Positions 27,144 to 48,156 of a stretch of 53,737 bases of DNA are shown piece by piece. The notes below the pieces were generated by a model. That model saw only the letters and a list, made by a program, of their open reading frames with translations, was not told the origin of the DNA and did no database searches. The DNA comes from Anaerolineales bacterium (GTDB taxonomy: Bacteria > Chloroflexota > Anaerolineae > Anaerolineales > UBA11858): NCBI GenBank assembly GCA_021108255.1, contig JAIORG010000230.1:1-53737 (forward strand), given 5' to 3'. Within the stretch, counting starts at the first letter, position 1. Every line of letters starts with the position of its first letter. Position numbers and translations under genes: made by a program.

Positions 27144-28829
27144 TCAAGCGGATTTGAGGTCAAGGATTTTTAGTTGAAAAGTTTCAATGCCTCGGAATTC
27201 ATTTAGATCGAATTTGTAAACAGCGTCAAATCGGGGGGGCATGGATTCAGCAAGGTGCCCAAGACCGAAACCAATAGCATCCAGGGAGTAGTCTCCGTCG
27301 GTGACCATCATTTTAAGATGGGTTTTATCCTGTCCGATTACTTTTATCTTAATGGATGAGAGATTTTTTGTAAGAAATACTGCTTCAGGATTTTGGCAAC
27401 CTGTAGGTTCAAGATTTTCAAGTTCTGAATACAATTCGGTATTAAGCTGATCAAGGGAGACTTCAGCGTCAACGGTAATTGAGGGCTGGATTTCAAGGCT
27501 GGCAAGTTGTTCTTTTGCAAAGGTCATCATCCGCTTATTAAAATCAGCAAGATTGTTGTTGGAAATTGTAAACCCGGCAGCAAGCGAATGGCCTCCATAA
27601 CGGACCAATAAATCTTTGCATTGATCGAGGGCGGAGATGATATTAAATTCAGGGATACTACGACAAGAGGCAGTTGTAAGTTCGGGGCCGATATTCCCAA
27701 CAATTGAGGGTAAGTAGTATTTTCTTGTTAGAGATCCTGCTGCGATTCCTGCAACTCCTAGATGAAAATCTGGATCTAAAGCAATGAGAATAGAAGGGAG
27801 CTGATCGTCCATAGTAGCCAGGATATCTGCCTGCTTTTCGAGCTTTTTGCTGAGCTTTTTTCTTTTAAAATTTTGGATTTCTAAAATTTGTGCAAGTTTT
27901 CCGCATTTTGCTAAATCTGAAGAAAGAAGCAAATCGAGAGGAATATCAGCAGAACCTAGTCGACCAGAAGCATTCAAGCGGGGTCCTATTTGGAAGCTTA
28001 TATCAGAAGAGCGAATATTTTTTGAAACTAAATTGGCTGCACCGAGGAGTGAGGAAATTCCCTGGCGGCGGGAGGTGTTGAGAGACCCAAGTCCCTTGCG
28101 AACAAGGTATCTATTCTCGCCAATTAGAGGTACAACATCGGCAATTGAACCAATAGCAACCAAATCAAGATAATCCGCAGGAACAATTTCAGGAAAAAGA
28201 TTACTAAGAGCGGAAATTAATTTATAGGCGACACCGACGCCAGCAAGATTTTTACCAGGATAGGAGTCGGACGGTAGTTTGGGGTTCAGGATAGCCGCTG
28301 CGAGAGGAAGGGTATCTTCCGGTGTGTGATGATCAGTAATAATCACCTTCATTCCTAATGAGTTAGCGTATTTAACCTCTTCTACTGATCGAATGCCATT
28401 ATCAACAGTAATGACTAATTTAACTCCCCGGTCAAACAAAGAGGACAAAGCTGGTTTGTTAAGTCCATAACCTTCAGTGAGCCTGTCGGGAATGTAAGGG
28501 AAAACTTTATCGGTTATCTTCAATAAGGCCAACACCAATAATGCAGTACTAGTAATTCCATCAGCATCATAATCTCCGAAAACAGCGATAGACTCGCGAT
28601 TTTGGATGGAATCCTGGATTATTTTAATGGCATTTTCTGTGTGAAGAAGTTGTTGTGAAAAGTACCAATCCGGCTCTTTCGGCAGAAGGAAGGTTTTGGC
28701 ATCTTCCTCTGTGAAAAAATTGCGCTGAAATAATACAGAGCGGAAAGCAGATGAAAAACTTGCAAGTTCACGATCGATATTGATTGGTATTGGTTTGGGT
28801 TCAATCCAATCAAAAAGAGGTAGGGTCAT
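27144..28829 (-). CDS. recJ: Single-stranded DNA exonuclease RecJ (short form)
   Basis: GDYDADG, TVDNG, ITDHH, PRLNASGRL, YGGH, OB-fold tail. Confidence 0.93.
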   Translation of the reverse strand: MTLPLFDWIEPKPIPINIDRELASFSSAFRSVLFQRNFFTEEDAKTFLLPKEPDWYFSQQLLHTENAIKIIQDSIQNRESIAVFGDYDADGITSTALLVLALLKITDKVFPYIPDRLTEGYGLNKPALSSLFDRGVKLVITVDNGIRSVEEVKYANSLGMKVIITDHHTPEDTLPLAAAILNPKLPSDSYPGKNLAGVGVAYKLISALSNLFPEIVPADYLDLVAIGSIADVVPLIGENRYLVRKGLGSLNTSRRQGISSLLGAANLVSKNIRSSDISFQIGPRLNASGRLGSADIPLDLLLSSDLAKCGKLAQILEIQNFKRKKLSKKLEKQADILATMDDQLPSILIALDPDFHLGVAGIAAGSLTRKYYLPSIVGNIGPELTTASCRSIPEFNIISALDQCKDLLVRYGGHSLAAGFTISNNNLADFNKRMMTFAKEQLASLEIQPSITVDAEVSLDQLNTELYSELENLEPTGCQNPEAVFLTKNLSSIKIKVIGQDKTHLKMMVTDGDYSLDAIGFGLGHLAESMPPRFDAVYKFDLNEFRGIETFQLKILDLKSA

Positions 28830-32451: not shown

Positions 32452-33627
32452 ATGTTTCAAAAGAAAACAATAAAAGATATTGATCTAAATGAAAAAAAAG
32501 TATTTGTGAGAGTAGATTTTAATGTGCCATTGAAAAACGGAAAAGTTGTGGATGATACCAGGATAAAGGCTGCGATTCCAACAATTCAATATTTGTTGAA
32601 TTGTAATGCTGCTGTAATACTGGCGTCCCATCTTGGTCGACCTGGCGGAGAACCAAAAGAGGAGTTTTCATTAAAACCGGTTGCAGATTATTTTGAACAT
32701 TTGATAGATGCAAGAGTGTTATTTGTTAACGATTGCATGGGTGCAATGGTTGAAGAGGCTGCCAAAAATCTGCAAAATGGAGAAATCTTAATCTTAGAAA
32801 ACACACGTTTCCATCCGGAAGAAGAGGCGAATGATCCTCTAATGGGAGCGAAATTAGCTAGCTTAGCCGATGTGTTTGTGAACGACGCCTTTGGAACTGC
32901 ACATCGAGCACATGCTTCCAATGTAGGTATTGCGAAACACATACCAGCGGTTTCGGGGTTACTTCTCGAAAGGGAAATTAATTACCTGGGAAACACAATT
33001 TCTGATCCAGAAAAACCATTTATTGCAATCCTTGGCGGAGCAAAAGTAAGTGGGAAGATTAACGTAATAGATAATCTAGCCGGAAAAGTAGACTATTTCC
33101 TTATTGGTGGAGGAATGGCTAATACTTTCTTTGCTGCGCAAGGTTACAAAATGGGCGATTCGCTAGTTGAAGAAGAATCTTTGGGAATAGCAAAAGAAAT
33201 TTTGAAAGGAACCGGAAAAAAATTATTACTACCGATAGATGTCGTAATTTCAGACGAGTTCAGCGCATCGGCGAATAACAAAACAATCCCGATTGGTGAT
33301 ATTCCTGAAAGTTGGAGCATCATGGATTTGGGACCATTGTCGCTGAATAAATTCGGGAAGATTATCAGAGACAGTAAAACAATTGTCTGGAATGGGCCTA
33401 TGGGAGTATTTGAATTTCCGGCATTCGCGAAGGGAACATTTTCTATGGCAAAAATTGTCGCAGAAAGCAATGCTGTGACAATCGTGGGGGGAGGGGATTC
33501 TGCAGCAGCTTTAAAAGAATCTGGATTAAGCGACAAAATTACCCACATCTCTACCGGCGGAGGAGCCTCTCTGAAAATGCTGGAAGGATCTCTTCTTCCT
33601 GGATTGGAAGCGCTTAACGATAAATGA
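32452..33627 (+). CDS. pgk: Phosphoglycerate kinase
   Basis: RVDFNVP, SHLGRP, LENTRF, NDAFGTAHRAH, HISTGGGASL. Confidence 0.98.
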   Translation: MFQKKTIKDIDLNEKKVFVRVDFNVPLKNGKVVDDTRIKAAIPTIQYLLNCNAAVILASHLGRPGGEPKEEFSLKPVADYFEHLIDARVLFVNDCMGAMVEEAAKNLQNGEILILENTRFHPEEEANDPLMGAKLASLADVFVNDAFGTAHRAHASNVGIAKHIPAVSGLLLEREINYLGNTISDPEKPFIAILGGAKVSGKINVIDNLAGKVDYFLIGGGMANTFFAAQGYKMGDSLVEEESLGIAKEILKGTGKKLLLPIDVVISDEFSASANNKTIPIGDIPESWSIMDLGPLSLNKFGKIIRDSKTIVWNGPMGVFEFPAFAKGTFSMAKIVAESNAVTIVGGGDSAAALKESGLSDKITHISTGGGASLKMLEGSLLPGLEALNDK

Positions 33628-33754
33628 AAATTGCAGCTGCATTTATTTTGAGAGATTGATGGAATCAGATTAAACGAAATTTAGAATTGTATTAAAAACT
33701 CTCGTTTTCGACAACAAACCCATAAAAAAATCAAAAGTTAGTGAGCAGTTGATT

Positions 33755-34981
33755 TTAACTGGCCGATTTGCGTTTAAGGCGGAATAAACGGTGATCAAGA
33801 GCTGCCCTGAGACTATCTGACTGGATGGATGAGGGAGTGACAGACAGAGAGTCTACGGCAGATAAAGTCCAATGAATAGCTTCTTGATAGTCATTTAGTT
33901 TATGTTCGTAATACATCGCCAACTCAATATGAGCTTGAAGCACATCATGAGACGCAATTGTTTCCCAAAGCGGTACTGCCTGCAAAAAATCGCCTTCTTT
34001 TTTATACAAAGATGCGAGTTTTGACATGGCTGTAATGTGTAAATTATCTGGTAGATCAATATTATTTACAGCGTGAAACAAAACGGATTGTGCAGACTGG
34101 GTACGGCCATGCTGGGAAAGATAAACTCCAATTGAAACTAGGTCATCAAATGATTGGTATTCCGCAGTAAGGGGAAATGAAAGACGGTTTGTAATGTAAT
34201 TCAAGAGGGTTATCAGGGAAATTACGTCTACCTCGTTATGATAAAAAACTGAGGAAAGAGGCGTTGGGTCGCCATTTTGAAGATAATCAAAATAATGCGA
34301 AGCAACTTTCCATCCGGGGACATCAAGCGAGGACCTTGTTACTCCGAGCAAATGATGTTCAATATCTCCCAGGGAGCAAGAAGAAAGGTGGGATTTCCAG
34401 AGCCGGCGAGCAATGTGAAGAAGATCTATGTGGAAAACATCAGCAAATGGAGGCGGCCATCCGTGGAATTTGTACCTGGTTTTCAGCCTGGGTAAATCAA
34501 AGGATTTACCGTTATAGGAAATTATCACTTTTGCGGACGAGCAAAAATCTTCCAGAGCGGCTAGCTGCGCAAGCTCATTTGCAGGGTCATGGAGAAAGAA
34601 TTGCGCAAAATTAAAACCTTCATTTGTAAATTTTGCTGCCCCGATCAAGAAAACGTAGGCACCGGCGCCTCCTGATAAACCAGTGGTTTCTGTATCGATA
34701 AATAGAAACTGGTCAAATGGAATCGATGAGATCCCTGAAAGAGATGGAATTTCGTCAAAAATTTCAAGGTTTAAAACCTGAAAAAGCCTTAGGTCGCCAT
34801 GAATAAAGTCCGGGGGGAAGGTTTTTCTGATAACAAAACAGTCACCTTTGGATGTGCTTTCCCAGCAGCCGTCTAATTCAACTGTAAGGCTAAGCGTGGG
34901 ATCGGACTTGACAGGAGCGCTGATTTTATCGGCGCCAATTTGAACGCCCAAAGACTTTAACTTTTCAGTTAGTGAAGTCAT
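33755..34981 (-). CDS. MrfB/YprB-like DEDDh exonuclease (RNase H-like) with C-terminal TPR-like helices
   Basis: FIDTETTGL, YNGKSFDLP, HIDLLH, YHNEVDV; C-terminal helical repeats (LASLYKK..AVPLW, ELAMYYEH). Confidence 0.85.
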   Translation of the reverse strand: MTSLTEKLKSLGVQIGADKISAPVKSDPTLSLTVELDGCWESTSKGDCFVIRKTFPPDFIHGDLRLFQVLNLEIFDEIPSLSGISSIPFDQFLFIDTETTGLSGGAGAYVFLIGAAKFTNEGFNFAQFFLHDPANELAQLAALEDFCSSAKVIISYNGKSFDLPRLKTRYKFHGWPPPFADVFHIDLLHIARRLWKSHLSSCSLGDIEHHLLGVTRSSLDVPGWKVASHYFDYLQNGDPTPLSSVFYHNEVDVISLITLLNYITNRLSFPLTAEYQSFDDLVSIGVYLSQHGRTQSAQSVLFHAVNNIDLPDNLHITAMSKLASLYKKEGDFLQAVPLWETIASHDVLQAHIELAMYYEHKLNDYQEAIHWTLSAVDSLSVTPSSIQSDSLRAALDHRLFRLKRKSAS

Positions 34982-35013
34982 GGTGCAATTTTACTATAGG
35001 GATAAGAGAAAAT

Positions 35014-36165
35014 TTACTTCTGAAGCAAAGCCGTCTTCATTCTTTCCAGCCCGGTGCAAAGTCTTTCTTTTGGACAGCCAAAATTGAGTCTAACGAAGGA
35101 GCTGTATTTCTCGCCAAACCAGAGGCCTTCGTTTAGAGCCACGCGGGCCTGATCGATAAAAAACTTAGAAGGATTTTCAAGTCCTGTCTCTTTGCAATCA
35201 AGCCAACCCAGATAGGTGCTTTCGGGTTTGCTCATTTGCACGCCTGGAAGCTCGGCTTGAACAAAATCAAACAGCAGGTTGCGATTAGCCTCCAAGTAGG
35301 ATAAAAGCTCATCAAGCCAATCCGCTCCGTTTTCGAAGGCTGCGCGCAAAGCAATTTCTCCTAGAAGATTTACCCCACCCACAGACCTATTCATAGTTTG
35401 GACAAATTGATCTCTAAGTAAGGGATTGGTAATTACAGCGGCTGATGTTTTCAGGCCAGCGATATTGAAAGTTTTACTAGCTGACAGCAAAGTTATTGTA
35501 ATAGCGGAAATATCTTTGGAAAGCGAAGCGATGGGGATGTGTTTCGTTTCTGTGAAGACCAGATCGCTGTGAATTTCATCTGAGCAAATTATTACATTGT
35601 GCTTGAGGCAAGCTTCGGCCATGCCTTTAAGTTCCAATTTTGAGAAGGTTCTACCTGTGGGATTTTGTGGATTGCATAACATGAAAATCCTGGTTTCAGG
35701 GGTTAAAGAAGATTGGAAATAATCTTTGTTAACTTTATAAGAACCATTAGAGTTTTGCGATAAAGGGGAGATTATTAAATTTGTGTTTGAGTTATTAGCT
35801 ACATGGAAAAAAGGGTGGTAAGCGGGGGTTTGAATCAATAAGGAATCCCCGGGATTTGAATAAGCTTTTGCAGTGACGTTAAATCCTTGGACGACGCCAG
35901 GGATGAGAATAATATCATCGGTATTTATCTTCCAGTTGTGACGTTTGAGGAGCCATTGCTGAATTGCCTGCTTGGTTGTATCCTGAATTATTGGGTAACC
36001 GAATATTCCGTGATTGATCCTCTCTTGGAGAGAGGAAACTACTGCAGGAGGCGAGAGAAAGTCAGTATCTGCAACCCAGAGAGGCAAAATATCATCCTCG
36101 TACAAATTCCATTTGATACTATCGGATTCGCGCCTGTTAATTAGCTGATCAAAATTATATTTCAT
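35014..36165 (-). CDS. PatB/MalY-family PLP-dependent C-S lyase
   Basis: FDQLINRRESDSIKW, LWVADTDF, CNPQNPTGR, SDEIHSD, SASKTFNIAGL, FVRLNFGCP. Confidence 0.92.
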   Translation of the reverse strand: MKYNFDQLINRRESDSIKWNLYEDDILPLWVADTDFLSPPAVVSSLQERINHGIFGYPIIQDTTKQAIQQWLLKRHNWKINTDDIILIPGVVQGFNVTAKAYSNPGDSLLIQTPAYHPFFHVANNSNTNLIISPLSQNSNGSYKVNKDYFQSSLTPETRIFMLCNPQNPTGRTFSKLELKGMAEACLKHNVIICSDEIHSDLVFTETKHIPIASLSKDISAITITLLSASKTFNIAGLKTSAAVITNPLLRDQFVQTMNRSVGGVNLLGEIALRAAFENGADWLDELLSYLEANRNLLFDFVQAELPGVQMSKPESTYLGWLDCKETGLENPSKFFIDQARVALNEGLWFGEKYSSFVRLNFGCPKERLCTGLERMKTALLQK

Positions 36166-38471
36166 AACAAGTATTCTTTTTTGGCATGTTTATAATAATA
36201 ACGATAAGATGATATTTCGTGAAGAAGAAGATTAAATTTATAGTCAATTGCAGCGAATCCTGGAAGGGGAGAGCCTCCGCCTGAAATAATTTGATTAGAT
36301 TTCAGATGGGAAAGATCATGATCTCCATGTTCATGGAGCCAGGTTATACCCAGTTCGATAAGCGCTGGAGTTTGCCCAATGCTTTGGGCAAAGAGAACAG
36401 GATCGTATGGTTTTCCGGTATCTCTTAGATGTTTAAGAAGCCCCAATATGGCTTGCAAAACTGATCTGTTGGTTTGGGGCATTGGATCTTCCGCAAAGAG
36501 AAAGACTGATTTGGGAGAAACAGAATCTAAAACATTTTTCAGGACTGAGGGGCTCGGTGGGGTTGTCCAGATAATTAGAGTTGGAGATTTAACGAGATCT
36601 TCCCTCGGTAGGCAATTTATACCTGATGGAGTATTGCATTCCGCCCAGATAATTGATGATGGATTTTCGATTACCAGTCGACCTAATTCAGTAAGAGGAT
36701 CGGTTTGTTTTCGGAAATCAAGTATTTTGATTTCCTTTGAATCCTTAAGGAGAATTGGAGTGTCTTTAGAATTACGAAAGTGCTGGAGGGTTAACTGGGG
36801 CTGGGATTTGCGATTGTAATTTGAAAGAACTAATGAGTAAGCAATATCGAAAACACTTTCAGGAAGATCAATGCCGACGCTGTTCCACCACAGGACATCT
36901 TGCTTGGTTCCGGCACTGTCTTCTAAGGTTAATTTCCTGTGATTCCGGTCTTTGCCAATGATTTTGTCAGTTATGAGTTTAACTCCGCGAGAAGCAAACA
37001 ATAATTTGGGATTACCTGAGCCAAAGGGAGAAAGCCGGTGGAAATCATTAATAAAATCAATGGATATTGATTGAAAAGGAAGCAATGTGTCAATTTGTAC
37101 TTGTGGAGAAGGGAGAGATTCGCCAACGATACCCTTGAAATTATGAGCAATTGTTCTTCGAAATTCTGACACTCTATCGGAATGGAGTTTGACGCCTGCA
37201 GCCATGGGATGTCCACCGTGGTTAATTAGAATGTCGCTGGCGCTAGCGATCAGGTCTGAAATTGGCACACCGGGTATAGAGCGCGCGGAACCGCGGGCGT
37301 TGTCTCCTTCTTCAGTAAGCATGATTACAGGTTTATGGAAACGATCAACCAGGCGGCTGGCAACAATGCCTATCACTCCAGGATTCCAGTTTGGAGGGCC
37401 CAGAAGTACGAGAATTGGATAATCCTCAACGAGGTCAGGATTGGTTTCTACTTTAGCAATAGCATCTTGAAAGATAACTTCTGTAAGCTCGCGTCTTTTG
37501 AGATTGAGATTTTCAAGTTCTGCAGCCAGGTTTGCTGCATGAGATTGGTCGTTGGTGGTGAAAAAATCAACACATGAGTTTGCGTCAGCAAGACGGCCGA
37601 GAGCATTCAACCGGGGACCGATGACGAAACCGATTTGATCTTCACTTATAGAAGCTCCATCCAGCTTTGCGTTAATGTAGAGCTGCCGTAACCCCAATCT
37701 GGATGTATTGCGAAGGATTGGTAAGCCGCGCTGGAGAAGATAACGAGTATCACCGTAAAGAGGGGCAACATCAGCGACTATACCAAGAGCGACAAGATCT
37801 AATAGATGGTCAACATTTTTGCCGTAAAGATTATAAAGGTGCTCGATAAGCTTAAACGCTACTCCAACTCCTGGAAGGGTTGATAAAGGATGTTCAGAAG
37901 GAAGCATATTAGGATTGATTATTGCATATGCATTTGGTAGAACCTGGGGAAGTTGGTGGTGGTCAGTGATTATGACGTCGATGCCTTGGTTTCGAGCATG
38001 CTCAATTGGTTCAAAAGCATCAATGCCTGTGTCACAGGTCAAGATTAATGAAGGTCGGAAAATTTCAATTTGAGAAGATAAAGAAGAAGTAGACATGCCA
38101 TGCGATTCTCTTGCGCGATTAGGGATGTAGTGGTGAACATCCCCCCCCAAATCGCGGAGAGCAGACACAAGAAGAGAAGTAGATGTTTGTCCATCAACAT
38201 CAAAATCTCCCCAAACCAGGATTATTTCATTTAGGGAGAGGGCAGATTCGAGACGTTCCGCGGCAAGTTTTAGGCCTGGCAGTTGGGCAGCTGGAGTGGG
38301 TTGGAAAAAATCAGGGTCAAGAAACCCTTGGGCTGATTTAGTTGAGGTTAATCCACGGCGGAACAAGGCCTGGGAGACGACTGAGGAATAACCCAATGTA
38401 GACTGAAAGCTAGAAGGAATATCAAGTAATTCAGGGAAAACCCATGTAATTGCAGAATTGCGCATAGGCAT
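36162..38471 (-). CDS. recJ: Single-stranded DNA exonuclease RecJ (long form with about 200-aa C-terminal extension)
   Basis: GDFDVDG, TCDTG, ITDHH, PRLNALGRL, GSARS, HGGH. Confidence 0.92.
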   Translation of the reverse strand: MPMRNSAITWVFPELLDIPSSFQSTLGYSSVVSQALFRRGLTSTKSAQGFLDPDFFQPTPAAQLPGLKLAAERLESALSLNEIILVWGDFDVDGQTSTSLLVSALRDLGGDVHHYIPNRARESHGMSTSSLSSQIEIFRPSLILTCDTGIDAFEPIEHARNQGIDVIITDHHQLPQVLPNAYAIINPNMLPSEHPLSTLPGVGVAFKLIEHLYNLYGKNVDHLLDLVALGIVADVAPLYGDTRYLLQRGLPILRNTSRLGLRQLYINAKLDGASISEDQIGFVIGPRLNALGRLADANSCVDFFTTNDQSHAANLAAELENLNLKRRELTEVIFQDAIAKVETNPDLVEDYPILVLLGPPNWNPGVIGIVASRLVDRFHKPVIMLTEEGDNARGSARSIPGVPISDLIASASDILINHGGHPMAAGVKLHSDRVSEFRRTIAHNFKGIVGESLPSPQVQIDTLLPFQSISIDFINDFHRLSPFGSGNPKLLFASRGVKLITDKIIGKDRNHRKLTLEDSAGTKQDVLWWNSVGIDLPESVFDIAYSLVLSNYNRKSQPQLTLQHFRNSKDTPILLKDSKEIKILDFRKQTDPLTELGRLVIENPSSIIWAECNTPSGINCLPREDLVKSPTLIIWTTPPSPSVLKNVLDSVSPKSVFLFAEDPMPQTNRSVLQAILGLLKHLRDTGKPYDPVLFAQSIGQTPALIELGITWLHEHGDHDLSHLKSNQIISGGGSPLPGFAAIDYKFNLLLHEISSYRYYYKHAKKEYLL

Positions 38472-38489
38472 TATATCATACCTTGTTAA

Positions 38490-39326
38490 TTAATATTCTA
38501 TTTCACTAACCTGGTCAATATCAAATTGAACATTCTTTAGATCCTCGTGTTCAATTGATGGTGATTTTTCAAATGATCCTGCTGAAGTGCCTCGATTGCA
38601 AAGGGATCTAAAAACACAATATTGACAAACAGCGTTATCGTCAGTTAATTGAAATTCGACATCTTCGGAAATATAGGTATTAATTTTACCTATAATTTGT
38701 TCTAAATCAATCTTGACTTCAGCGTTCTTGTCTTTTGAATAGGGGAAGATTTCTTTGTGTTCTGAAGCTAGTGGATACCAATAATGCATCTCAATACAAG
38801 CAGGAGATATGGGAGTTTCAGGAAATAAATCATTTACTGTCTGACTAAAAATGTAGGGATACAAATGAGTTTGAAGCTTTTTGTCTAATGTTGAGCGGGA
38901 AGGTTTCTTTGAGGCAGTTTTCCAATCGATTATTAAATATTTCTCTGAATTGATTTCAACTACAAGATCGTATTTCGCAATAAGTTTGTGAGTGAGGAGC
39001 GAAATACTAAGCAGGGGTTCAGGGAAAAAACGATATTTGAGCAACGATTTACCATACGGTAAGAATTTATCCCACATAGCCTGCAAATCAGGGTCGGATA
39101 AAGAATTTTCAATCAAAACAGGATCAATTCCTGAAAAGAATTGCTGGCAAATCAAATGGAATCTATTGCCAAGCAATGTTGATATTTCAAATTTGCCAAT
39201 GGGTTCTGAATAAGCTGCGGGCAGAGATAAGCCTTCAATAACTTTTAATTGGAAACGACGCGGACAATCCAAAAAGTCCTGCAAGTTGCTCTGATTTAGC
39301 TGTAAGGATTGATTAGGTTTTGACAT
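38490..39326 (-). CDS. Stand-alone PD-(D/E)XK RecB-family nuclease with four-Cys Fe-S staple (AddB/AdnB nuclease-like)
   Basis: CPRRF (Cys21), GNRFH, KYDL, IIDWKT, QTHLY, CQYCVFRSLC. Confidence 0.88.
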   Translation of the reverse strand: MSKPNQSLQLNQSNLQDFLDCPRRFQLKVIEGLSLPAAYSEPIGKFEISTLLGNRFHLICQQFFSGIDPVLIENSLSDPDLQAMWDKFLPYGKSLLKYRFFPEPLLSISLLTHKLIAKYDLVVEINSEKYLIIDWKTASKKPSRSTLDKKLQTHLYPYIFSQTVNDLFPETPISPACIEMHYWYPLASEHKEIFPYSKDKNAEVKIDLEQIIGKINTYISEDVEFQLTDDNAVCQYCVFRSLCNRGTSAGSFEKSPSIEHEDLKNVQFDIDQVSEIEY

Positions 39327-39329
39327 GCG

Positions 39330-41585
39330 TTATCCTGGACCTGAAGAAGATGGATCTGGTTTATTTTTGAGATAGTCAGATAAAGCTTGAAAAGGCACAG
39401 AGGGAGTAGTTTTTCCCGATCGCCCATTATTCCAGGTAATAACCAACTCCTCTCTTGCTCTAGTAATCGATACGTAAAACAATCTTAAGCGTTCTCGAGC
39501 ATAATCCAATCTTGATTGTTTCGTCCCTTCGCTTTCAATATATTTAGCAGAAGATTCGTCTACTAAAGAAGTTAGTTGTGCCAACGCTTCGGCTGGCAAA
39601 TTCAAATGATCGCGGATAAACCAACGTTCAGATATAAAAATATCATCAGGGAGATTTGAAGGAAAATTGTAATTATTTGCTGATATTAAATAAACCCTGT
39701 CCCATTCAAGCCCCTTGGATTTATGAGCTGTAGTTATGACTACTTTTCCTTTATGATCATCGGGATTAAATTGGTTCTCCTCGCTGATCGAGAAGAAGCG
39801 TCTTTCATTTCTGGCCAAAGACTTGAGTTCATCCAGTAACGCTGGTAATTCCCAGTCGGGATGTTGAGTGGCAAGCTGTTTTTGAAAAGCAGCTATTTTA
39901 TGAGAAATAGAAAGCTCTTCTGAAGTATGAAAAAGGTCTCCTGAAAGGGTAAGGATAAGCTGATCAATGGGAAGAAGAGCTGCCTTGTGCCATTTGATAA
40001 TGATATCCTTGAAATCAAATAGGGTTGAAAGCAAATCAGGATCTCCGGAATCTAATGTAGCCATCCAATCCTCAGAGGGACTTGGAGAAAGGAAAAGCTC
40101 AGGTTTTTGTATTGTATTTAATAATTCTGAAACAGATTCAACCTTGGACCAAGCATCCGAATTAGATTGCAAGTCCCTTTTCCAAACCCGATAAACAGCA
40201 GATAACTTCTTGGAAGAACTTGGATCAATCAAATAGGACAGGATAATTACCAGGGATCCGGTAGTTTTTCTGGTAGAGAGGGTAGTATTTAAATACTCAA
40301 CGGGCTCAATTTTATGTTTATTCCTCAAATATGAAGCAATTTTTTTACCCCTATCATTCCGGGGAGAAAGAACTGCGACTGTCTGCTGGGGATGATTTTT
40401 CAACCAGGAGGAAACGGAATCTGCAATTACCTGGATTTCTTTTTCGGGTGTAAGCTCCTTATCAAAGAAGTGAATCTGACCTGACTGATACTTGGGATTT
40501 GGCTGCAGGTCATCAGGTGGCGTTGGAACAATTTTGTTAGGATAAAGAGCATCGCAGATCAGAGATTGGGGGTGATATTTGTTTGTCCAATCAACGAGGT
40601 AGTTTGCAAGGTCAATGATTGCTTCAGTACTTCGACCTGAATTGGGGAGAACGTGATTCTGGTCAGAAATCTCAATAAATTTCAGAAGCAATTTTGGATC
40701 TGCGGTTGTGAAAGATTCATAGATAGCCTGATTCGGATCACCAACCCGGACCCAATTTTGAGAATCTTTGGGGCCGGCAAGCAAAGATAATATTCTTTGC
40801 TGCATTAAGCTGCTGTCTTGGGCTTCGTCCTCAAGGATAAACGGCCAATTCGACTGGAGACGATTAAGCAGCGACAAATCTAATTTCAGAATATTATAAG
40901 CATGATTAATGAGATCGTCAAAATCAACAGCACCTCTGTATTCGAGATTTCGCTGGTAAACTTTGTAAATTTCTAAACCCATTTCAGCTAAATGCAAATT
41001 ATTTTTTGTGGATTTAATTTGGAGAAGTAAAGAATCGGGCGACAGTTGATGATTCTTGGCTGTGCGAATAAATTGATTTGCTATTTGCAATAATAAATCA
41101 GGGATTTGTTTTTTATATAATGACGTTTTTTTCTTTTCGTTGAGGTCGGGAATCAGATACGGATCTATTCCACCGGGATATTTCCTCAACCAATCATAAA
41201 CCGCGTCAACTCTGATTCGATCCGCTTCCCTTTCGTCAATTATCTGAAATTTAGAATCAAGGCCAACAAGATCTGGTCGTTCTTTAACGATATCGTGGGC
41301 AAGTCCATGAAGGGTACGGACTCGATATCCCAGAGAAGGAAGGAGACCCATGTCCTGCAAAAATGAACTAATTCTAAGAGAAAAATTGTCAACAGCTGAG
41401 TTGACCAGAGTAACAATAAGGACTTCCTGGTCGGCGGACAATAAACCACTATTGATTAATTCAGCCGCGAGTAAGGACAATGTCCAGGTTTTACCACTGC
41501 CGGGTACAGCTGAGACACCCATAGTCCCACCGCGATAAGCGAGAATTTTCTTTTGAGCAGGGCGAGGAGAATAGTAATTAGTCAT
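39330..41585 (-). CDS. UvrD/PcrA-like SF1 helicase with intact motifs
   Basis: AVPGSGKT, TLHGLA, DFDDL, DEAQD, VGDPNQAIY, SGRS, TAHKSKGLEWD, LFYVSITRA. Confidence 0.92.
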   Translation of the reverse strand: MTNYYSPRPAQKKILAYRGGTMGVSAVPGSGKTWTLSLLAAELINSGLLSADQEVLIVTLVNSAVDNFSLRISSFLQDMGLLPSLGYRVRTLHGLAHDIVKERPDLVGLDSKFQIIDEREADRIRVDAVYDWLRKYPGGIDPYLIPDLNEKKKTSLYKKQIPDLLLQIANQFIRTAKNHQLSPDSLLLQIKSTKNNLHLAEMGLEIYKVYQRNLEYRGAVDFDDLINHAYNILKLDLSLLNRLQSNWPFILEDEAQDSSLMQQRILSLLAGPKDSQNWVRVGDPNQAIYESFTTADPKLLLKFIEISDQNHVLPNSGRSTEAIIDLANYLVDWTNKYHPQSLICDALYPNKIVPTPPDDLQPNPKYQSGQIHFFDKELTPEKEIQVIADSVSSWLKNHPQQTVAVLSPRNDRGKKIASYLRNKHKIEPVEYLNTTLSTRKTTGSLVIILSYLIDPSSSKKLSAVYRVWKRDLQSNSDAWSKVESVSELLNTIQKPELFLSPSPSEDWMATLDSGDPDLLSTLFDFKDIIIKWHKAALLPIDQLILTLSGDLFHTSEELSISHKIAAFQKQLATQHPDWELPALLDELKSLARNERRFFSISEENQFNPDDHKGKVVITTAHKSKGLEWDRVYLISANNYNFPSNLPDDIFISERWFIRDHLNLPAEALAQLTSLVDESSAKYIESEGTKQSRLDYARERLRLFYVSITRAREELVITWNNGRSGKTTPSVPFQALSDYLKNKPDPSSSGPG

Positions 41586-41588
41586 CTG

Positions 41589-43703
41589 TCATGCCTGATC
41601 TTGCTCAGACGAGCGAATTAAAATTTGGATCTTGTTGAGGGATTTAATCAACAATCCTTTTTGTTCAAACCCGCGTTCATCTGTATTAGTCAAACAAAAA
41701 AATATGCCTTTTCTGCAGCGGCGGATAAGGCCAGATGATAATCGATTTAGGCTTTCATGATTAAGGGCAAATTCTTCAGTATCTCTCCAGGGCAGTCCGA
41801 TTTCCCAATCTCTGTTGAGGACATGAGGGTTGGTAAGGGGCTGAAAAATTCTTTCGTACCATCCGCGGGATCCGACGTCTAGCCAAAATTGGTAATCAGC
41901 GGGTGTGTTGCTGAGCAAAAAAGTATACGCGGGAGTTAGATACACTGATTTTTTAGGTCTATGAGACCAGGATCTGGGGTGCTGGTTTGCAAGTACGCCG
42001 GCTTTAACCATGCGGTAATATTCAGATCCAAGTTGAAGGTTGGAAAAGCCAAGGACTTCTCCTGCTGAAAGACGGAATTTACGGATTGAATCAATAGTTT
42101 GTTCAGAAATTTGACCCTTATCAAAATCATTATGAAATCCATATCCAGGTTGAGATAAAAGCTCACCAAATATTCTGATCTGAAAGTGATCTAGAGGTTG
42201 AGGAGGTTGGTTACTGTAATCACGCAGCCAGTTTACAAGAGATTGGTAGCGGTTGCCGGCAGAAAAGGTGATGCGCTCCTGAAGCCCAGAGGGAAAATTT
42301 TCAAAATCAGCTAAACGGCCTTCTTTGCTGAATGTTTGAAAGCAATGTTTTGCTAATAAGTAAGATCTCGTAAGATCAAAGTTTTCCATAAATTGCATAA
42401 AAGCAAAGGCAAGTTCATGTATTGTGGGTTGAATTTCCCAATCGGGATGCGCCAATGCAGAGAGAGTAAGCAAGCAGTGCGCAACTGGTTCATCACGCAG
42501 TGCGCGGGAAGGTCGATGAGAAGTTGATTCTATCTGTTGTTTAGCCAGTTCTGATGATAACAAAAATCTCAATGAATCGCTAAGGAAAGGAGCCAGAACA
42601 ACAATTTCATCCGGGGAAGTGCCGTCTTCTATGAGTTCCTTGATCTTGCTTGCAACCCAGGTGACCATCTGGGGATAGTAAGGATGGAAGTTTACTGAGA
42701 CCGCATCTGCGAGTTCCGGTTCCAAATTTTCAATTATAAGTGGTTTAGATTCCAGGGAGGAAGACAAGAAAGAGTTGAATTGAGATAGAGACGGAGACAT
42801 AGTATAAGATTGAGTCAATTCTATTTTGTTGGTGCAGAAATCTGCCAGTTTCATTCCTCCGGAAGGAGATGCTCCTAGAAAATTCCTGTAACCGGCAGAG
42901 AGGTCGTAGATTATCAAAGAAGAGTCAAGGGAGGGCAGCATATCCTTGATGAAATCGTGAGCAACAGGAACGTCTTCTTCTACATTGTCATAGATCAAGT
43001 GTTTGAACTGTTTTTTGAAATGCTCTTTTATCTTCTGGTGGGGGATAAGATAATTGACGTACAGTTCTATCTGTAAGGAATAATCCAATAAATTGTGTTG
43101 ATAGCAATACTCCCTGAAAAGCGCTGCAGCATTTTGTGCGTCTTGGAAAATGCCTAGCTGGGCCGGATCTCCAATCCATGATGATTGAAGACGTTCTGAG
43201 ATTTCAGTATGCGGAAATCCGTGAATAGCTGCTTTGTTGAGGTTATCTAAAATTTGACTAAAAAGACGGTTTCGCTGGATGGTAACGGATGAAAAATAGC
43301 CCCCATCAACAACCAGCGGAGTGATTAATTGGGACATGAAGTACAAGGTAGATTCGAGGGTGAGGAAAGTTGGGAGCTTATCTGGATCAAATAGCCCTGT
43401 TTCGGATGATATCAGCGGCCAATAAAGTTCGATAGTCCTCCGTGCAAGCCCACCGAAAGTGGCTATAACAGGTAAACTGCCTCCTTGAAACGCGATAGAG
43501 TTGATGGAGTCCTGGTATAGCGAAGAAAGAGTTCTTTGCGGAAAAAGTAGCAATATCTTGTTCCCCGGAATACCGTTTTCAACCAGGAAGTTCAAACGCG
43601 CTACTCCCGCGGTGGATTTTCCTGTACCGGCAGGACCGGAGAGAAATAATGAACTACCAGGGTCTGATTCAATTATCTTGATTTGATTTCTAGATAAATT
43701 CAT
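41589..43703 (-). CDS. Degenerate UvrD-like (SF1) helicase-fold protein
   Basis: GPAGTGKST and ATFGGLA are present, but motif II is YDNVEED, motif III is YDLSAGYRNFLGA, motif IV lacks Arg and motif VI is LIRRCR. Confidence 0.78.
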   Translation of the reverse strand: MNLSRNQIKIIESDPGSSLFLSGPAGTGKSTAGVARLNFLVENGIPGNKILLLFPQRTLSSLYQDSINSIAFQGGSLPVIATFGGLARRTIELYWPLISSETGLFDPDKLPTFLTLESTLYFMSQLITPLVVDGGYFSSVTIQRNRLFSQILDNLNKAAIHGFPHTEISERLQSSWIGDPAQLGIFQDAQNAAALFREYCYQHNLLDYSLQIELYVNYLIPHQKIKEHFKKQFKHLIYDNVEEDVPVAHDFIKDMLPSLDSSLIIYDLSAGYRNFLGASPSGGMKLADFCTNKIELTQSYTMSPSLSQFNSFLSSSLESKPLIIENLEPELADAVSVNFHPYYPQMVTWVASKIKELIEDGTSPDEIVVLAPFLSDSLRFLLSSELAKQQIESTSHRPSRALRDEPVAHCLLTLSALAHPDWEIQPTIHELAFAFMQFMENFDLTRSYLLAKHCFQTFSKEGRLADFENFPSGLQERITFSAGNRYQSLVNWLRDYSNQPPQPLDHFQIRIFGELLSQPGYGFHNDFDKGQISEQTIDSIRKFRLSAGEVLGFSNLQLGSEYYRMVKAGVLANQHPRSWSHRPKKSVYLTPAYTFLLSNTPADYQFWLDVGSRGWYERIFQPLTNPHVLNRDWEIGLPWRDTEEFALNHESLNRLSSGLIRRCRKGIFFCLTNTDERGFEQKGLLIKSLNKIQILIRSSEQDQA

Positions 43704-43706
43704 AAT

Positions 43707-46700
43707 CTATTCTAAAGCAGAACCTGGGTATTTGGAGATCTCAGTATTGAACAAGTCCAGATTGCAGGCAGACAATTTTAATGAAAGAACCATAAAATTC
43801 TTCAGTTCACGAATTTCCAAAGCGAGACCCTGTTTGCCGTGTGTTGATGGATCGCTGTTTGCTTGGCTATTGATATAAAGAATTCCAAGAGTTAAATCAA
43901 GTAGAAACTCAAAGGACTCTTGATTGAACCACGTAATTCCTTCGTGGTCATGAATTTCTAAAAAAGCTAGGATATCCTGGTTAGAAAACCAGATTGATGT
44001 TATATCGCTGGGAGATAAGGCAATATTAGTTAAACGGGATGAGAGAGAAGTAATTATTTTTGAGTTTGATATAAATGAAGTATGCTCTGAAGGCGCAAAT
44101 ACGAAATTTGTATAAGGTTGAGTTGAAGAGAGACGAAAAATGTCCAGGAGCAATGATCGGGGAATAAGTTCAATAAGTTCAGAAAAGATTACCCAGAACA
44201 GGAGAGTATACAGGACATGGTTGCCCTCATTATTCTTAATGACTTTGTATTCATAACAATTGTTAAGCGACGTTAGTTTTGAAGAAATCAGTTCTTGATA
44301 ATCTGTTGGGAAGTCACTTGCTTCTGGGTGAAGCCGGGCGAGAATAGAAGCGAAAGAGGACAGGCTTTGCGAAAAACGATCTTCTAAATCAAGCGGATCT
44401 TCGCCACTCCGTTCATTGTTTTGAGCGACAGAAGACGAAATGGTTGGTAAATACCCTGATATACAAATTGAAACCAGTTCGTCCAGTGCCTTTAGAAGAG
44501 GCGAAAGTCTGGTTTCAAGAAGCTTTTCCTGGAGATCAGGGGAACCATTACCTTGAAGAGATGAGTTAAGGAGAGAGAAATCGCCACTCGGGTCAGCAAC
44601 TTCCTTAAAATCAATGAAAACTTGATATTGATATGCGCCTAAATCAATCCTTAACCCATTTTTGCGGAAGTCAGCAGATGAGCGGATATACTCCAAGCCA
44701 GAGATGTGCTCACGAAACAAAATAAAGCTGGCATCTGAATTTAGTAATCCTAAGTTTTCCGACAACGATCTGGATTCGCCATTAATTTCCGTTGAGCGGG
44801 AAATAACTCCGTGAGTTGAGGACCACTTATTGTGATAGAGAATTAATGCCGATTCTCCACGTGCTTGGTTGGAGTGAGCAAAAACATCCTGATTTACTGT
44901 GCCGTTATCTAATACGAAATCGTACAAAACAAAATTTTCCGCTTCTGCAAACAAGTACCTTTTGTGGAGTAGAGGAAAAACTTCATGGCGGTGGCGGTCA
45001 ATAAGGTTTTGATTGGGCTGCTCGTTGTAATACGCTCGTTGGTACTCCATGCCATATTTTTCTGAATAGCCTTCAATTTGACCGTGGCCAAACATAGGCA
45101 AGCCGGGGAGAGTAGCCATCATAATGCATACACCAAAATATTTCCCATCTGATCCAAATTGTGAAATAGCGGTATCTTCATCCGGATTGCTCATGAAATT
45201 TACATAACGCTTTAGAATTTCAGGATCAAATTCTAAAGTCTTTTTGATGAGATTTCTATAATCAGCATTGTCTTCGTTGCGGAACATATGCATAAATGCG
45301 CTGTTGTATACCCTGTGCATGCCCAGCGTCCTGACAAAATATCCCTCCATCATCCAGAAAGCTTCGGCTAGCAAAAGAGTACCAGGTGCTTCGGACGCAA
45401 CCCGATCTACCACTTCACGCCAGAATTCATCAGTCATGATTTGATCAAATTGAGATTTAGTCAATCCGAAGTCTGTTCTTGTAGGGATGGCGCCGCCTGT
45501 TCCAGGTTCAGGAAACCATAACCTTTGGAAATGTTTTTTTGCAAGGGTCATCGCAGCGTCAAAACGAATAATTGGAAAATTGCGAGCTACATGCAGGACG
45601 GTCTGAATAACAGCTTCACGCACTTCCTGCTGAAGGAAATCCAGTTGAGCTGTGTCGTTCCAGGGAAGAGAAGTCCCGTCATTGCCGTGGTAAATATACA
45701 TTGAACTACCATCGAGGTTATCGACTCTTTTGAAAACAATGGAAGCGTCGCTCTTATCAAAATAATGATCTTCAAGGAAAATACCTACTTGAGCATCGTC
45801 GGATAAGTCGGGACCATTAAAGGAATAAGAAGGAAAAGGAGGCTGATCCAGACCTAAAAAACGCTCAGGATGCTCTATTACCCATTTTGACGAGATACCC
45901 ATATGGTTTGGAACCATATCAGCTGCGAGGCGAATATTGAAAGATTGAGCGCGGGAGGATAAATTATTAAAAGCGGATTCACCTCCAAGAGTATCAGCAA
46001 TCGCGTAATCGAAAATAGAGTACGCCGAAGGAACAGCGTCAGGGTTGCCGCACATCTGCTTGATTTTTTGAGAGGCAGGGCTTCGTTGCCAAATACCAAT
46101 TAACCACAACCCCGTGATTCCCCATTGGGATAAAGTTTCCAGTTCCTGATCTGGAATTTGGTCAAGACGGTGAATTTCACTGTGGTACTTTTTAGAGAGC
46201 TGGTCCATCCAGACAAAAGTGTTTTTTGCTAGAAGGATCACATTTGGCATCCAGTCAAGATCTTTGCTGAAGTGGACTGTGTCTGAATCAGTAATATAGG
46301 AAGCAAGCGTAAAATTAAACTGGCTTCCGGTTTTATCAGGTCCAATCCAGGAAGGTTTATGTTCTTCATTAATTCGATCAAGGGCACGGAGGAGATCGTT
46401 TAATATATCCTCTCCAAGAAGCGTGCTCCAATTCTGGCGTATATAGTCAAGTTGATCATGAATGGAATTGGGGTGCGCAGTAGAGGGGGCTCTGAGTAAA
46501 TCTAAAAGGGATGCGTCGCCAATGGTATGTCCTGATTGACTAGAGAAAGAGTCTTCGATAACAGACAAGAAAGGCATGTAAAGTGGAGCTGTTCGAAATT
46601 CAGGAGAGGTAAAAACACCATCGTTTTCCCTGATCGCAGGGTTAGCATCAGCCAGGAAGGTCAATAATATTGATTTATACAAGGAATGACGCTTAGAAGC

Positions 46701-47093
46701 GTTCTTTGAAGGTGCTAGTAAGTAATCAGAAGCAGCAGATTGGTCCAGATATACACTGGAAGTGGGAAAAGAATCCAAAAAGGAAGTGACAATTTCGTCA
46801 CAACCGGTGGAACTTAGACGAGACACAAGTATCTTGTCTAAGTCGGAAAGAGAGGAGGGAGAATAATCTTGCAGATAGGACTCGATTATTTTGAGGAAAA
46901 CTTTTCCGATCAGGCCAACGGCGGAAACCTCACTTGCAGAAAAAGGGGAAGGCGAATCCTGGAATTTAGAAACAAAAATCCTGGAATTAATAATCGAGGG
47001 ATAATTAAAACCAGGAGATAAATTTAGCCGAGAGAGAACATGCGAGGTTAGGGGATGAGATATGTGTTCCCGTGCGGGCAATTGAATAGGCAT
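43707..47093 (-). CDS. Large GH13 alpha-amylase-family glycoside hydrolase
   Basis: DMVPNH, WNDTAQLD, IRFDAAM (nucleophile), LAEAFW (acid/base), NPDED, LPGLPM; long N- and C-terminal extensions. Confidence 0.88.
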   Translation of the reverse strand: MPIQLPAREHISHPLTSHVLSRLNLSPGFNYPSIINSRIFVSKFQDSPSPFSASEVSAVGLIGKVFLKIIESYLQDYSPSSLSDLDKILVSRLSSTGCDEIVTSFLDSFPTSSVYLDQSAASDYLLAPSKNASKRHSLYKSILLTFLADANPAIRENDGVFTSPEFRTAPLYMPFLSVIEDSFSSQSGHTIGDASLLDLLRAPSTAHPNSIHDQLDYIRQNWSTLLGEDILNDLLRALDRINEEHKPSWIGPDKTGSQFNFTLASYITDSDTVHFSKDLDWMPNVILLAKNTFVWMDQLSKKYHSEIHRLDQIPDQELETLSQWGITGLWLIGIWQRSPASQKIKQMCGNPDAVPSAYSIFDYAIADTLGGESAFNNLSSRAQSFNIRLAADMVPNHMGISSKWVIEHPERFLGLDQPPFPSYSFNGPDLSDDAQVGIFLEDHYFDKSDASIVFKRVDNLDGSSMYIYHGNDGTSLPWNDTAQLDFLQQEVREAVIQTVLHVARNFPIIRFDAAMTLAKKHFQRLWFPEPGTGGAIPTRTDFGLTKSQFDQIMTDEFWREVVDRVASEAPGTLLLAEAFWMMEGYFVRTLGMHRVYNSAFMHMFRNEDNADYRNLIKKTLEFDPEILKRYVNFMSNPDEDTAISQFGSDGKYFGVCIMMATLPGLPMFGHGQIEGYSEKYGMEYQRAYYNEQPNQNLIDRHRHEVFPLLHKRYLFAEAENFVLYDFVLDNGTVNQDVFAHSNQARGESALILYHNKWSSTHGVISRSTEINGESRSLSENLGLLNSDASFILFREHISGLEYIRSSADFRKNGLRIDLGAYQYQVFIDFKEVADPSGDFSLLNSSLQGNGSPDLQEKLLETRLSPLLKALDELVSICISGYLPTISSSVAQNNERSGEDPLDLEDRFSQSLSSFASILARLHPEASDFPTDYQELISSKLTSLNNCYEYKVIKNNEGNHVLYTLLFWVIFSELIELIPRSLLLDIFRLSSTQPYTNFVFAPSEHTSFISNSKIITSLSSRLTNIALSPSDITSIWFSNQDILAFLEIHDHEGITWFNQESFEFLLDLTLGILYINSQANSDPSTHGKQGLALEIRELKNFMVLSLKLSACNLDLFNTEISKYPGSALE

Positions 47094-47190
47094 GAGTTAG
47101 TTACTATGAATTTTTAATCGTTTGCAGGCCAATTTGATAAACAATAGATAATAAATATTAAATTGCGTGTAGGCAATAACCCTCTTTTAC

Positions 47191-47957
47191 TTATAACTCC
47201 AAGTTCCTTAATGCAAATTCCTTCATTTCCGAAACCTCTTTTAGCTTTTTCATCGTTATATCTTCAAATATATTAGATTGAACAACCTTTATAAAATTTC
47301 CCTTTATCAATTCTAGCAGGGCAAGAAATGAAATCACTACATCCAGGCGAGTAAAGTCATTACCCAACAAATCACGGAAGGTCAATTCTTCAGTATCCTT
47401 AAATCGTTCAGAAATTTGAGTAATTTTATCTTTTATTGTGATTTTCGGTCTTTCTACTATGACACTTATAGATTTCTTGTCAATTTCTTTCTGGAATATA
47501 TTGGTTGCCAGCTCAAAAAGATCGCTAATGCCAAAGCCATCAAGATCCAGTTGATCTTTAACTTCCAATTGGGGGGAGGAGAGACGAATAAAGGTCTGAT
47601 AGCCAGCAGATCAGCTATTTCCTTATATCGTTTATAAGCAATTAACTGGCGTGCTAATTCATTCCCGATATCAATTTCTTCTTCTCTGCCTGAAGTCTGG
47701 GTAGGAAGCAGCGCTTCAGATTTAATTTGAATAAGTTTTGCTGCAATAACTAAAAACGCTGAGATTTCATCTGGGGGCATATCCTGCAATTTCTCTAAAT
47801 GTTTCAGGTACTGATCTGTCACTTGAGCAAGAGAAAGTGTAGTGATATCTAACTCTGCGCCTTCAATTAATTGAAGCAATAAATCAAGAGGTCCTTGATA
47901 AACGGGTGTGTTAATCTTGTAGGTATTTACCTGATCGGTAGAGAATTTCAAGTCCAT
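47191..47957 (-). pseudogene. scpA: Segregation/condensation protein A split by a frameshift (true lesion or assembly error)
   Basis: The N-terminal part has YQGPLDLLLQLI, FLVIAAKLIQIKS and LIAYKRYKE. The C-terminal part is in another frame and has SFLALLELIK..VVQ..IFEDI. The frames switch near nt 47595. Confidence 0.8.
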
Positions 47958-48156
47958 AACAACCATTATACTCGACATCCTCAAATGAAGGTTTGTTTAC
48001 GGGACAATAGTCAATCCGTGACAACCCGTTGATTAGAAAATTGTTAATTATGCGGATAAACTATGACATAATGGGTTCTATGTGATAAAAATAGGTAAAG
48101 TTTAAAAATATCAATCTCAGTTATTTTTCTGATAGCTGGGAATTACAGGAGTGAAT

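Follow-up and report, generated by a model that had tools for sequence, protein, structure and literature searches.

In textbook accounts, bacteria begin the repair of DNA breaks with RecBCD, AddAB or AdnAB. Here we ask whether four consecutive genes in an Anaerolineales bacterium (Chloroflexota) encode a DNA-end-processing machine of this kind in separate pieces. The genes lie on contig JAIORG010000230.1 of GenBank assembly GCA_021108255.1, which was analysed in full (53,737 nucleotides, henceforth referred to as the window), and they specify a degenerate UvrD-fold protein, a UvrD-type helicase, a small nuclease and a RecJ. A reading of the window from its sequence alone (henceforth the sequence-only reading) had proposed that the first three form an AddAB/AdnAB-like end-resection system coupled to RecJ. 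On balance, we favour the view that the four genes encode an AddAB/AdnAB-like module for processing DNA ends that is split into separate proteins and has a RecJ of its own.

Four genes in a conserved arrangement

The four genes follow one another on the same strand (open reading frames, ORFs; lengths in amino acids, aa; SF1A, superfamily 1A):

41589..43703, minus strand: 704-aa degenerate UvrD-fold subunit (ORF list, translation, Pfam)
39330..41585, minus strand: 751-aa UvrD-type SF1A helicase, the predicted motor (ORF list, Pfam UvrD-helicase and UvrD_C)
38490..39326, minus strand: 278-aa free-standing PD-(D/E)XK nuclease of Cas4/AddB type (ORF list, PDDEXK_1)
36162..38471, minus strand: 769-aa long RecJ paralogue (ORF list, TIGR00644, DHH/DHHA1/RecJ_OB)

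The ORF coordinates agree with the sequence-only reading in giving gaps of 3, 3 and 18 nucleotides between successive genes; the RecJ gene is followed by an aminotransferase gene, the two sharing an overlap of 4 nucleotides.

To follow the genes across the phylum, we used the same 301 Chloroflexota genomes for every search. Strong matches to the degenerate subunit were found in 34 of them, this genome included, with a weak match in a 1221-aa ORF of one further genome left out of the count. The subunit was present in every one of the 27 genomes sampled from the same order, in four of the six other genomes of the class and in two genomes of another class. The nuclease was detected in 33 of the 34 carriers (one weak, stop-containing match outside the carriers was not counted), and the helicase, at E ≤ 1e-30, in 33 of the 34 carriers and in none of the 267 other genomes. 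Motor, degenerate partner and nuclease, which had been expected to co-occur, were found together in 32 carriers, while none of the three was found elsewhere at orthologue thresholds.

Gene order was compared in 50 loci with at least 7.5 kilobases (kb) downstream of the degenerate-subunit gene. The helicase lay downstream on the same strand in 47 of these loci and was directly adjacent in 29; the nuclease was present in 35 (26 times directly after the helicase), RecJ was present as well in 24, and three loci had none of these genes. Since the same arrangement recurs in dozens of loci, far beyond chance, the four genes constitute a real, conserved arrangement. One further degenerate-subunit gene, 46% identical and located on a contig of 2188 bases (DYJN01000151.1, locus L067), is filed under an Arcobacter metagenome-assembled genome, most likely through a binning error rather than as a result of transfer.

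The arrangement also extends to other phyla. A profile of the 704-aa protein, searched against 1.84 billion representative proteins, returned 645 at E ≤ 1e-30. Among the named members of this family are Clostridiales, Negativicutes and Natroniella acetigena, and the cluster names of 20 representative proteins refer to Bacillota and Thermoflexales, with no cyanobacterial name among them. Of 11 Bacillota-type metagenome loci with enough sequence to contain the whole cassette, nine have it in the full order, beginning with the degenerate subunit and continuing through helicase and nuclease to the long RecJ, and these nine stand for about five distinct lineages; two loci had the first gene only, and two further ones were too short to tell. 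A full four-gene cassette is also present on plasmid pSR56 of Salinibacter ruber M8 (L116/L117), with 38% identity to the 704-aa protein. The synteny of the first three genes with RecJ thus holds across Chloroflexota, Bacillota-type loci and this plasmid.

A conserved ATP-binding subunit, an intact helicase and a free nuclease

The 704-aa protein has only a weak N-terminal UvrD-helicase match in Pfam (23.6 bits) and no nuclease domain. Its translation contains a Walker A motif (GPAGTGKS) and a motif II region reading IYDNVEED. Across 34 aligned orthologues, residues G23, G28 and K29 of Walker A are invariant, and motif II takes the form DNxEE in place of DExQD, with N240, E242 and E243 invariant; the same form is found in Bacillota-type and plasmid copies (VDNLEE, ADNVEE). 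When the family was aligned with the profile of the active 751-aa helicase, motifs Ia, IV and V were lost and about half of motif III was kept, together with the Q-motif glutamine of this protein and a motif-VI-like arginine, R662, that is invariant in the 34 orthologues. The sequence-only reading had rightly recognised a helicase fold with Walker A kept, DN in motif II and motif IV eroded, but DN is not a sign of erosion, motifs III and VI are in part retained, and the subunit is not simply a dead scaffold. Given the invariance of Walker A, DNxEE and R662, the 704-aa subunit is best read as a conserved ATP-binding variant and not as a product of random decay.

The confident AlphaFold model of this protein (predicted local distance difference test score, pLDDT, 90.4; predicted template-modelling score, pTM, 0.87) has an order of strands and helices that fits subdomains 1A, 1B, 2A and 2B alone, and it ends with domain 2A, with no extra domain. 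Compared by Foldseek, the model has UvrD as its top match by E-value (3.8e-23), the best template-modelling (TM) scores being those of AdnB (0.66) and AddB (0.61). The hhalign comparison of the 704-aa family with the helicase-like part of AddB gave an E-value of 2.1e-16 over 591 columns, the full length of the subunit; neither ADDB_N (PF21445) nor the addB model of NCBIfam matched the protein. A single-sequence search of PDB returned nothing useful for either this protein or the nuclease, and profile searches were needed for both.

The 751-aa protein, by comparison, has strong Pfam matches to UvrD-helicase (151.5 bits) and UvrD_C (89 bits), and neither PDDEXK_1 nor any other nuclease domain. 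We found that the motifs read from its translation (among them GSGKT, LEDEAQD and ITRAREE) are part of a complete set: every SF1 helicase motif is invariant in 23 orthologues, as expected from the description of the protein as a UvrD helicase with all motifs intact. Among PDB profiles its family is closest to PcrA/UvrD/Rep (PcrA, 1.8e-46), followed by AddA (3.7e-29), AdnB (5.4e-27) and RecB (1.7e-15), and hhalign aligned it with AddA at 8.6e-46. On the NCBIfam model addA_Gpos the helicase scored 81.4 bits against a cut-off of 707.65, and all AddA and AddB scores of the cassette proteins were far under their cut-offs. In eight genomes of one family, f2 (G043, G112, G157, G193, G218, G258, G274 and G282), the helicase match falls into two or three pieces within a single frame of about 780-816 aa, which suggests lineage-specific insertions in the motor.

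The nuclease activity is instead predicted to reside in the 278-aa protein, which matches PDDEXK_1 with 82.7 bits (cut-off 22) and has the fold of the broader PDDEXK_1/Cas4 family. Its translation shows C21, D120, D134-W-K136, Q152..Y156 and C234/C237/C243, i.e., the D..DxK, QxxxY and 1+3 cysteine pattern that had been noticed before, and in 25 orthologues C21, C234, C237, C243, D120, D134, W135, K136 and Q152 are invariant. By hhalign, it aligned with the iron-sulfur (Fe-S) nuclease domain of AddB at 3.4e-12 over 223 columns, with the cysteines aligned, and with the AddA nuclease at 3.9e-7 over a 119-column core only. A profile search of PDB ranked the nuclease domain of AdnB first (2.3e-5), followed by the Argonaute-associated Cas4-family enzyme ACE1 (2.7e-4) and Cas4.

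The last residues of the nuclease (window 38490-38520) form an acidic tail that finishes on an aromatic residue (..EIEY), a feature conserved across phyla (..EIEF, ..ILPY and ..EIPY; L116, L127, L129, L134 and L141) and similar to the tails of two of the single-stranded DNA-binding proteins (SSBs) of this genome (..DEYPF, ..DDIPF). It is possible that this SSB-tail-like C-terminus acts as a docking peptide. The genome has three SSB paralogues (C17, C63 and C13), and that of C63 has no acidic C-terminal tail.

One could argue that such genes are the remnants of a decayed AddAB/AdnAB operon, or that an assembly artefact has split a fused gene, as degenerate motifs and small gaps could suggest frameshifts. 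We regard this as very improbable, and the conservation data contradict it. The Pfam results confirm that neither helicase-like chain has a fused nuclease, and the nuclease was a separate ORF at every locus examined. Furthermore, in alignments of 25-34 orthologues with identities as low as 21-25%, and also beyond the phylum, the proteins are again encoded by separate ORFs and keep their catalytic and cysteine residues invariant, while canonical AddAB is encoded elsewhere in the genome and resembles the cassette at the level of motifs only.

A dedicated long RecJ

The fourth gene encodes a long RecJ, as had been read from the sequence: at 769 aa, the protein scores 477.6 bits on TIGR00644 (cut-off 396.9), contains DHH, DHHA1 and RecJ_OB, and has, beyond the RecJ core, a further stretch of about 205 aa at its C-terminus (the extension; window 36165-36779). 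A second, canonical paralogue lies only 8 kb away, so that both are found in the window:

27144..28829, minus strand: canonical 561-aa RecJ (TIGR00644, 516 bits)

A short RecJ was present in all 35 genomes examined, and the long form in 24 of the 33 other carriers versus neither of two non-carriers of the same class. Searched alone, the extension was detected in 23 of the 301 Chloroflexota genomes, all of them carriers. The long RecJ adjoins the nuclease in 23 of the 50 loci, and this adjacency persists where both helicase genes are elsewhere (G175, G226 and G094). The cassette RecJ can therefore be considered a dedicated long paralogue and, with its extension found only in carriers, the earlier description of three subunits with a coupled RecJ gives way to that of a four-gene unit.

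Relation to known helicase-nuclease systems

On another contig, this genome has canonical addB (1063 aa; ADDB_N, 78.5 bits, and PDDEXK_1) and addA (1152 aa), so the module is not a replacement for AddAB here. Pairwise BLASTP comparisons of the cassette proteins with the genome's own AddA and AddB showed motif-level similarity only, meaning that the cassette is not a recent duplicate of this AddAB. Carriers do not always have the canonical enzyme: AddB was found in 12 of the 34 and none was seen in the other 22. Likewise, an ORF of more than 900 aa with PDDEXK_1 was present in 13 carriers and absent from 21, and in about two-thirds of the carriers these queries detected no helicase with a fused nuclease, be it of the RecB, AddA/B or AdnA/B kind.

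The cassette shares several features with AddAB of the Bacillus subtilis type (PDB 3U44/3U4Q, 4CEH-4CEJ), namely one active SF1A motor with a UvrD-fold partner in which motif I serves as a nucleoside triphosphate (NTP) site, a 1+3 cysteine iron-sulfur staple in the nuclease, and a gene order in which the degenerate subunit precedes the motor, as in addB-addA. It differs in that no subunit carries a fused nuclease, the single PD-(D/E)XK nuclease being a separate 278-aa protein, in that it includes a dedicated long RecJ, and in that its 704-aa subunit has no ADDB_N match. AddB is described as having four UvrD-like subdomains and as having lost all motifs but motif I, which is still a genuine NTP site and has a part in stabilising Chi complexes, and AdnA as retaining the motif III loop (PMC3321194). 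An inactivated helicase fold keeping motif I is also what we see in the 704-aa protein, where part of motif III and the motif-VI arginine remain in addition. The Fe-S nuclease that AddB carries fused at its C-terminus is here encoded two genes downstream, and the C-terminal RecB-type nuclease of the AddA helicase chain is absent from the 751-aa protein.

Similarly, mycobacterial AdnAB (PDB 6PPJ, 6PPR, 6PPU, 7SJR and 9NP6) has two UvrD-like chains. The degenerate subunit superposes best on AdnB, the nuclease likewise has its top PDB profile match in the nuclease domain of AdnB, and the 704-aa protein retains part of motif III, as does AdnA, as well as the motif-VI arginine. By contrast, nucleases are fused to both Adn subunits and to neither chain here, and AdnAB has no RecJ. 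Solo Cas4 and ACE1 (PDB 4IC1, 9IAB and 9IAC) are of the same size class as the free nuclease and share its 1+3 cysteines and its D..DxK and QxxxY core. However, the nuclease is well below the cut-off of the NCBIfam Cas4 equivalog TIGR00372 (25.3 bits versus 65) and has no CRISPR or Argonaute partner nearby, with no Cas protein among the proteins scanned around it. PADLOC returned only generic GajB and Cas4 matches and no system partner. With respect to Gabija (GajA-GajB), the 751-aa helicase matches GajB models generically (at most 143 bits), while GajA, an OLD-family nuclease, was found in none of the six neighbouring proteins.

Parts of the cassette may have been seen before. Unfused uvrD and Cas4-like genes have been reported in predicted operons of several bacteria, mostly Clostridiales, with no defence context and a possible role in DNA repair, and solo-Cas4 as monophyletic in many Chloroflexi (Hudaiberdiev et al. 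2017, PMC5704561). These operons are probably the same cassette seen from the side of the nuclease; the main text of that paper has no occurrence of RecJ, and we found no degenerate helicase, four-gene unit or mechanism named in it. Our literature search, in which most subscription journals were not covered, found no paper treating the four genes as one machine. New here are the second, longer RecJ paralogue, the carrier-restricted trio, the cassette's presence across phyla and on a plasmid, and the carriers in which no AddB was seen.

A predicted machine for DNA ends

If the four proteins do form one module, its substrate would be a double-strand end, from which the intact UvrD-type helicase would translocate as a 3'-to-5' motor. 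The degenerate subunit would serve as an ATP-binding partner or strand guide similar to AddB or AdnA and, like AddB, may bind ATP and hardly hydrolyse it. We infer that the proteins assemble, with the nuclease perhaps tethered through its acidic, SSB-tail-like C-terminus instead of by fusion. The Fe-S nuclease would then nick the displaced 5' strand, and the long RecJ would digest that strand in the 5' to 3' direction, leaving a 3' tail for RecA. In this scheme both nucleases are assigned to the 5' strand; nucleases of the AddB, AdnA and Cas4 type, the closest relatives of the free nuclease, are said to cut this strand (PMC3321194 among sources). The sequence-only reading had RecJ replacing a 5'-strand nuclease while the free nuclease acted on the other strand, a possible division of labour that finds no support in the likenesses of the nuclease.

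Several observations weigh against the view of a single machine related by descent to AddAB and AdnAB. The nuclease was not found in one carrier (G031), the helicase in another (G055), and the long RecJ in nine of the 33 other carriers. Across the 19 genomes of family f2 the genes are scattered on the chromosome, which is unusual for obligate subunits; the dispersed genes are nevertheless all retained, and the nuclease and long RecJ are often still neighbours. Because the carrier genomes are kin, the co-occurrence comes down to a handful of independent cases, namely Anaerolineae, one further class of Chloroflexota, the Bacillota-type loci and a single plasmid. The likeness of the 704-aa subunit to AddB is generic, as the profile of the active 751-aa helicase aligns to AddB equally well (4e-18 versus 2.1e-16), and the rank of UvrD in the Foldseek comparison by E-value likewise makes it non-specific. 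Besides, canonical AddAB accompanies the cassette in 12 carriers, this genome among them. Finally, when the nuclease and its alignment were searched against longer proteins, no fused helicase-nuclease relative was found at E ≤ 1e-5, which is weak evidence against such a descent. The one long match, P0266 (1419 aa), contains no more of the degenerate subunit than its C-terminal half, preceded by roughly 1000 N-terminal residues that match none of the three profiles.

Some of these points could equally be explained if no stable machine existed and the proteins acted sequentially in a RecF-type pathway, in which a UvrD-type helicase unwinds the DNA, RecJ degrades the 5' strand, and the nuclease and degenerate helicase are independent accessory factors. 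The dispersal of the genes in f2 (and, if its genes are orthologous, in Synechococcus elongatus; see below) would fit this picture, as would a helicase profile nearer to PcrA/UvrD/Rep than to AddA or AdnB. UvrD and RecJ reportedly act in this way in Deinococcus. The abstract of a Deinococcus paper names the RecFOR pathway and extended synthesis-dependent strand annealing (ESDSA; PMC2806897). Yet it is difficult to account for a degenerate helicase that is universally retained with an invariant Walker A motif, and always accompanied by the same helicase paralogue, unless the two are partners, and both the tight junctions (3-nucleotide gaps here, direct adjacency in 29 of the 50 loci) and the transfer of the four genes as a block between phyla point the same way. 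We thus consider a purely sequential pathway improbable and continue to favour the split module.

Neighbouring genes in the window

Two other genes lie near the cassette in the window:

43707..47093, minus strand: 1128-aa alpha-amylase-domain protein, a fifth gene 3 nucleotides upstream of the 704-aa gene
33755..34981, minus strand: 408-aa protein with an RNase_H_2 (PF13482) exonuclease-like domain and TPR

The amylase-domain gene is kept upstream of the cassette in L042-L046 and missing in the closest relative, L041. It was rejected as part of the module on the basis of this absence and is probably unrelated to the cassette. The 408-aa gene lies two genes downstream of RecJ, a position kept in the six closest relatives (L041-L046) and not in those further removed. 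A scan of positions 33000-48500 for promoters and terminators yielded 28 and 14 sites, respectively, against 32.3 and 13.8 expected, and was thus uninformative.

Repair or a barrier to foreign DNA

The sequence-only reading held that a housekeeping context favours repair over a role against phages or plasmids. The first half of this claim agrees with our data: the neighbours here are housekeeping genes, and those of the Bacillota-type loci mostly so (PPDK, GuaA, Hsp33, SpoIID, MurJ). The universal, single-copy presence of the degenerate subunit among the 27 sampled members of the order argues, together with such neighbours, for a core function in DNA maintenance. The second half is less secure, as the cassette is also carried by the defence-rich pSR56 and a cyanobacterial screen, in which the genes are matched by size and annotation only, points to an anti-plasmid effect.

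The alternative is that the same mechanism serves mainly as a barrier to plasmids, transforming DNA or linear phage DNA that enter the cell, degrading them in the manner of exonuclease V and possibly feeding guides to Argonaute where there is one. Evidence for it comes in part from genomic context. Plasmid pSR56 (56.5 kb) largely consists of defence and DNA-transaction genes, including type I restriction-modification, SocA and BrnTA toxin-antitoxin pairs, DUF262, dinB, a thermonuclease and, together with a GIY-YIG nuclease and a methyltransferase, a DEAD-box protein of 1313 aa, a setting that speaks for activity against foreign DNA. In one of the Bacillota-type loci, L133, the flanking genes are those of the toxin-antitoxin proteins AbiEii and HepT. 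On the other hand, a gene found in single copy in all sampled members of an order does not show the patchy spread usual for defence systems, and housekeeping neighbours were found here and in four of the five distinct Bacillota-type loci. No match to the degenerate subunit was present in the phage record collection, and PADLOC, as described above, offered no system partner.

Further support for a barrier comes from cyanobacteria. In the ESM Atlas, the 704-aa protein has cyanobacterial clusters of 688 aa as its neighbours (score 0.98, with 221 of 256 features). In S. elongatus, random barcode transposon-site sequencing (RB-TnSeq) showed that loss of ago, cas4, uvrD, recJcy, rpoD2 or Synpcc7942_0992 improves the transfer or maintenance of RSF1010, and the same losses are also said to benefit natural transformation (Taton et al. 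2023, PMC10653904). The annotation sheet of that study lists uvrD (2515) with 755 aa, a RecJ-like protein with 775 aa, cas4 (2273; COG2887) with 255 aa and Synpcc7942_0992 (COG0210) with 665 aa. RecJcy is described as a low-similarity copy of RecJ in cyanobacteria (PMC5101192).

The same four kinds of protein are thus found in S. elongatus PCC 7942, at 755, 775, 255 and 665 aa versus 751, 769, 278 and 704 aa here, a correspondence of size and annotation. As in our carriers, this UvrD and this RecJ come in addition to PcrA and a first RecJ; the genes are scattered, a feature shared with f2, and their mutants show a common phenotype. There are differences too: 0992 is described with a PD-(D/E)XK-like domain that is absent from the 704-aa protein (PMC10653904), and the authors link the genes to Argonaute, whereas Piwi-domain genes were found in only two of our 34 carriers with a profile that, having also missed the S. 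elongatus control, is of limited sensitivity. On this count, a role as helper of prokaryotic Argonaute (pAgo) was rejected for Chloroflexota. The presence of the module in cyanobacteria is accordingly a lead, resting on the Atlas placement and one paper. Taken as the principal role, a barrier to incoming DNA appears to us unlikely, though with more in its favour than the sequential pathway. Repair and action against foreign DNA can, by analogy with RecBCD, both hold.

What the module would mean for DNA-end processing

A broader interpretation, which we put forward tentatively and with more doubt than the split module itself, is that the cassette represents a fourth family of bacterial helicase-nuclease end processors after RecBCD, AddAB and AdnAB, made up of four separate proteins: a motor, an ATP-binding pseudo-helicase, a free Fe-S nuclease attached through an SSB-like tail, and a dedicated RecJ. 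In Anaerolineae, many Bacillota and cyanobacteria without RecBCD it may then be chiefly responsible for resecting ends and degrading foreign DNA, and the S. elongatus uvrD, recJcy, cas4 and 0992 mutants would be its first genetic phenotype.

Many lineages, including most sampled Anaerolineales carriers, show none of RecBCD, AddAB and AdnAB. If our reading is correct, a four-protein module that processes DNA ends in pieces would fill this gap, and motor, scaffold and nucleases would not need to be fused, making the module a natural system in which to ask what each part contributes. If, in addition, the cyanobacterial genes are orthologous, the module would limit plasmid uptake and natural transformation, which is relevant to the engineering of cyanobacteria, and would link end resection to defence against foreign DNA.

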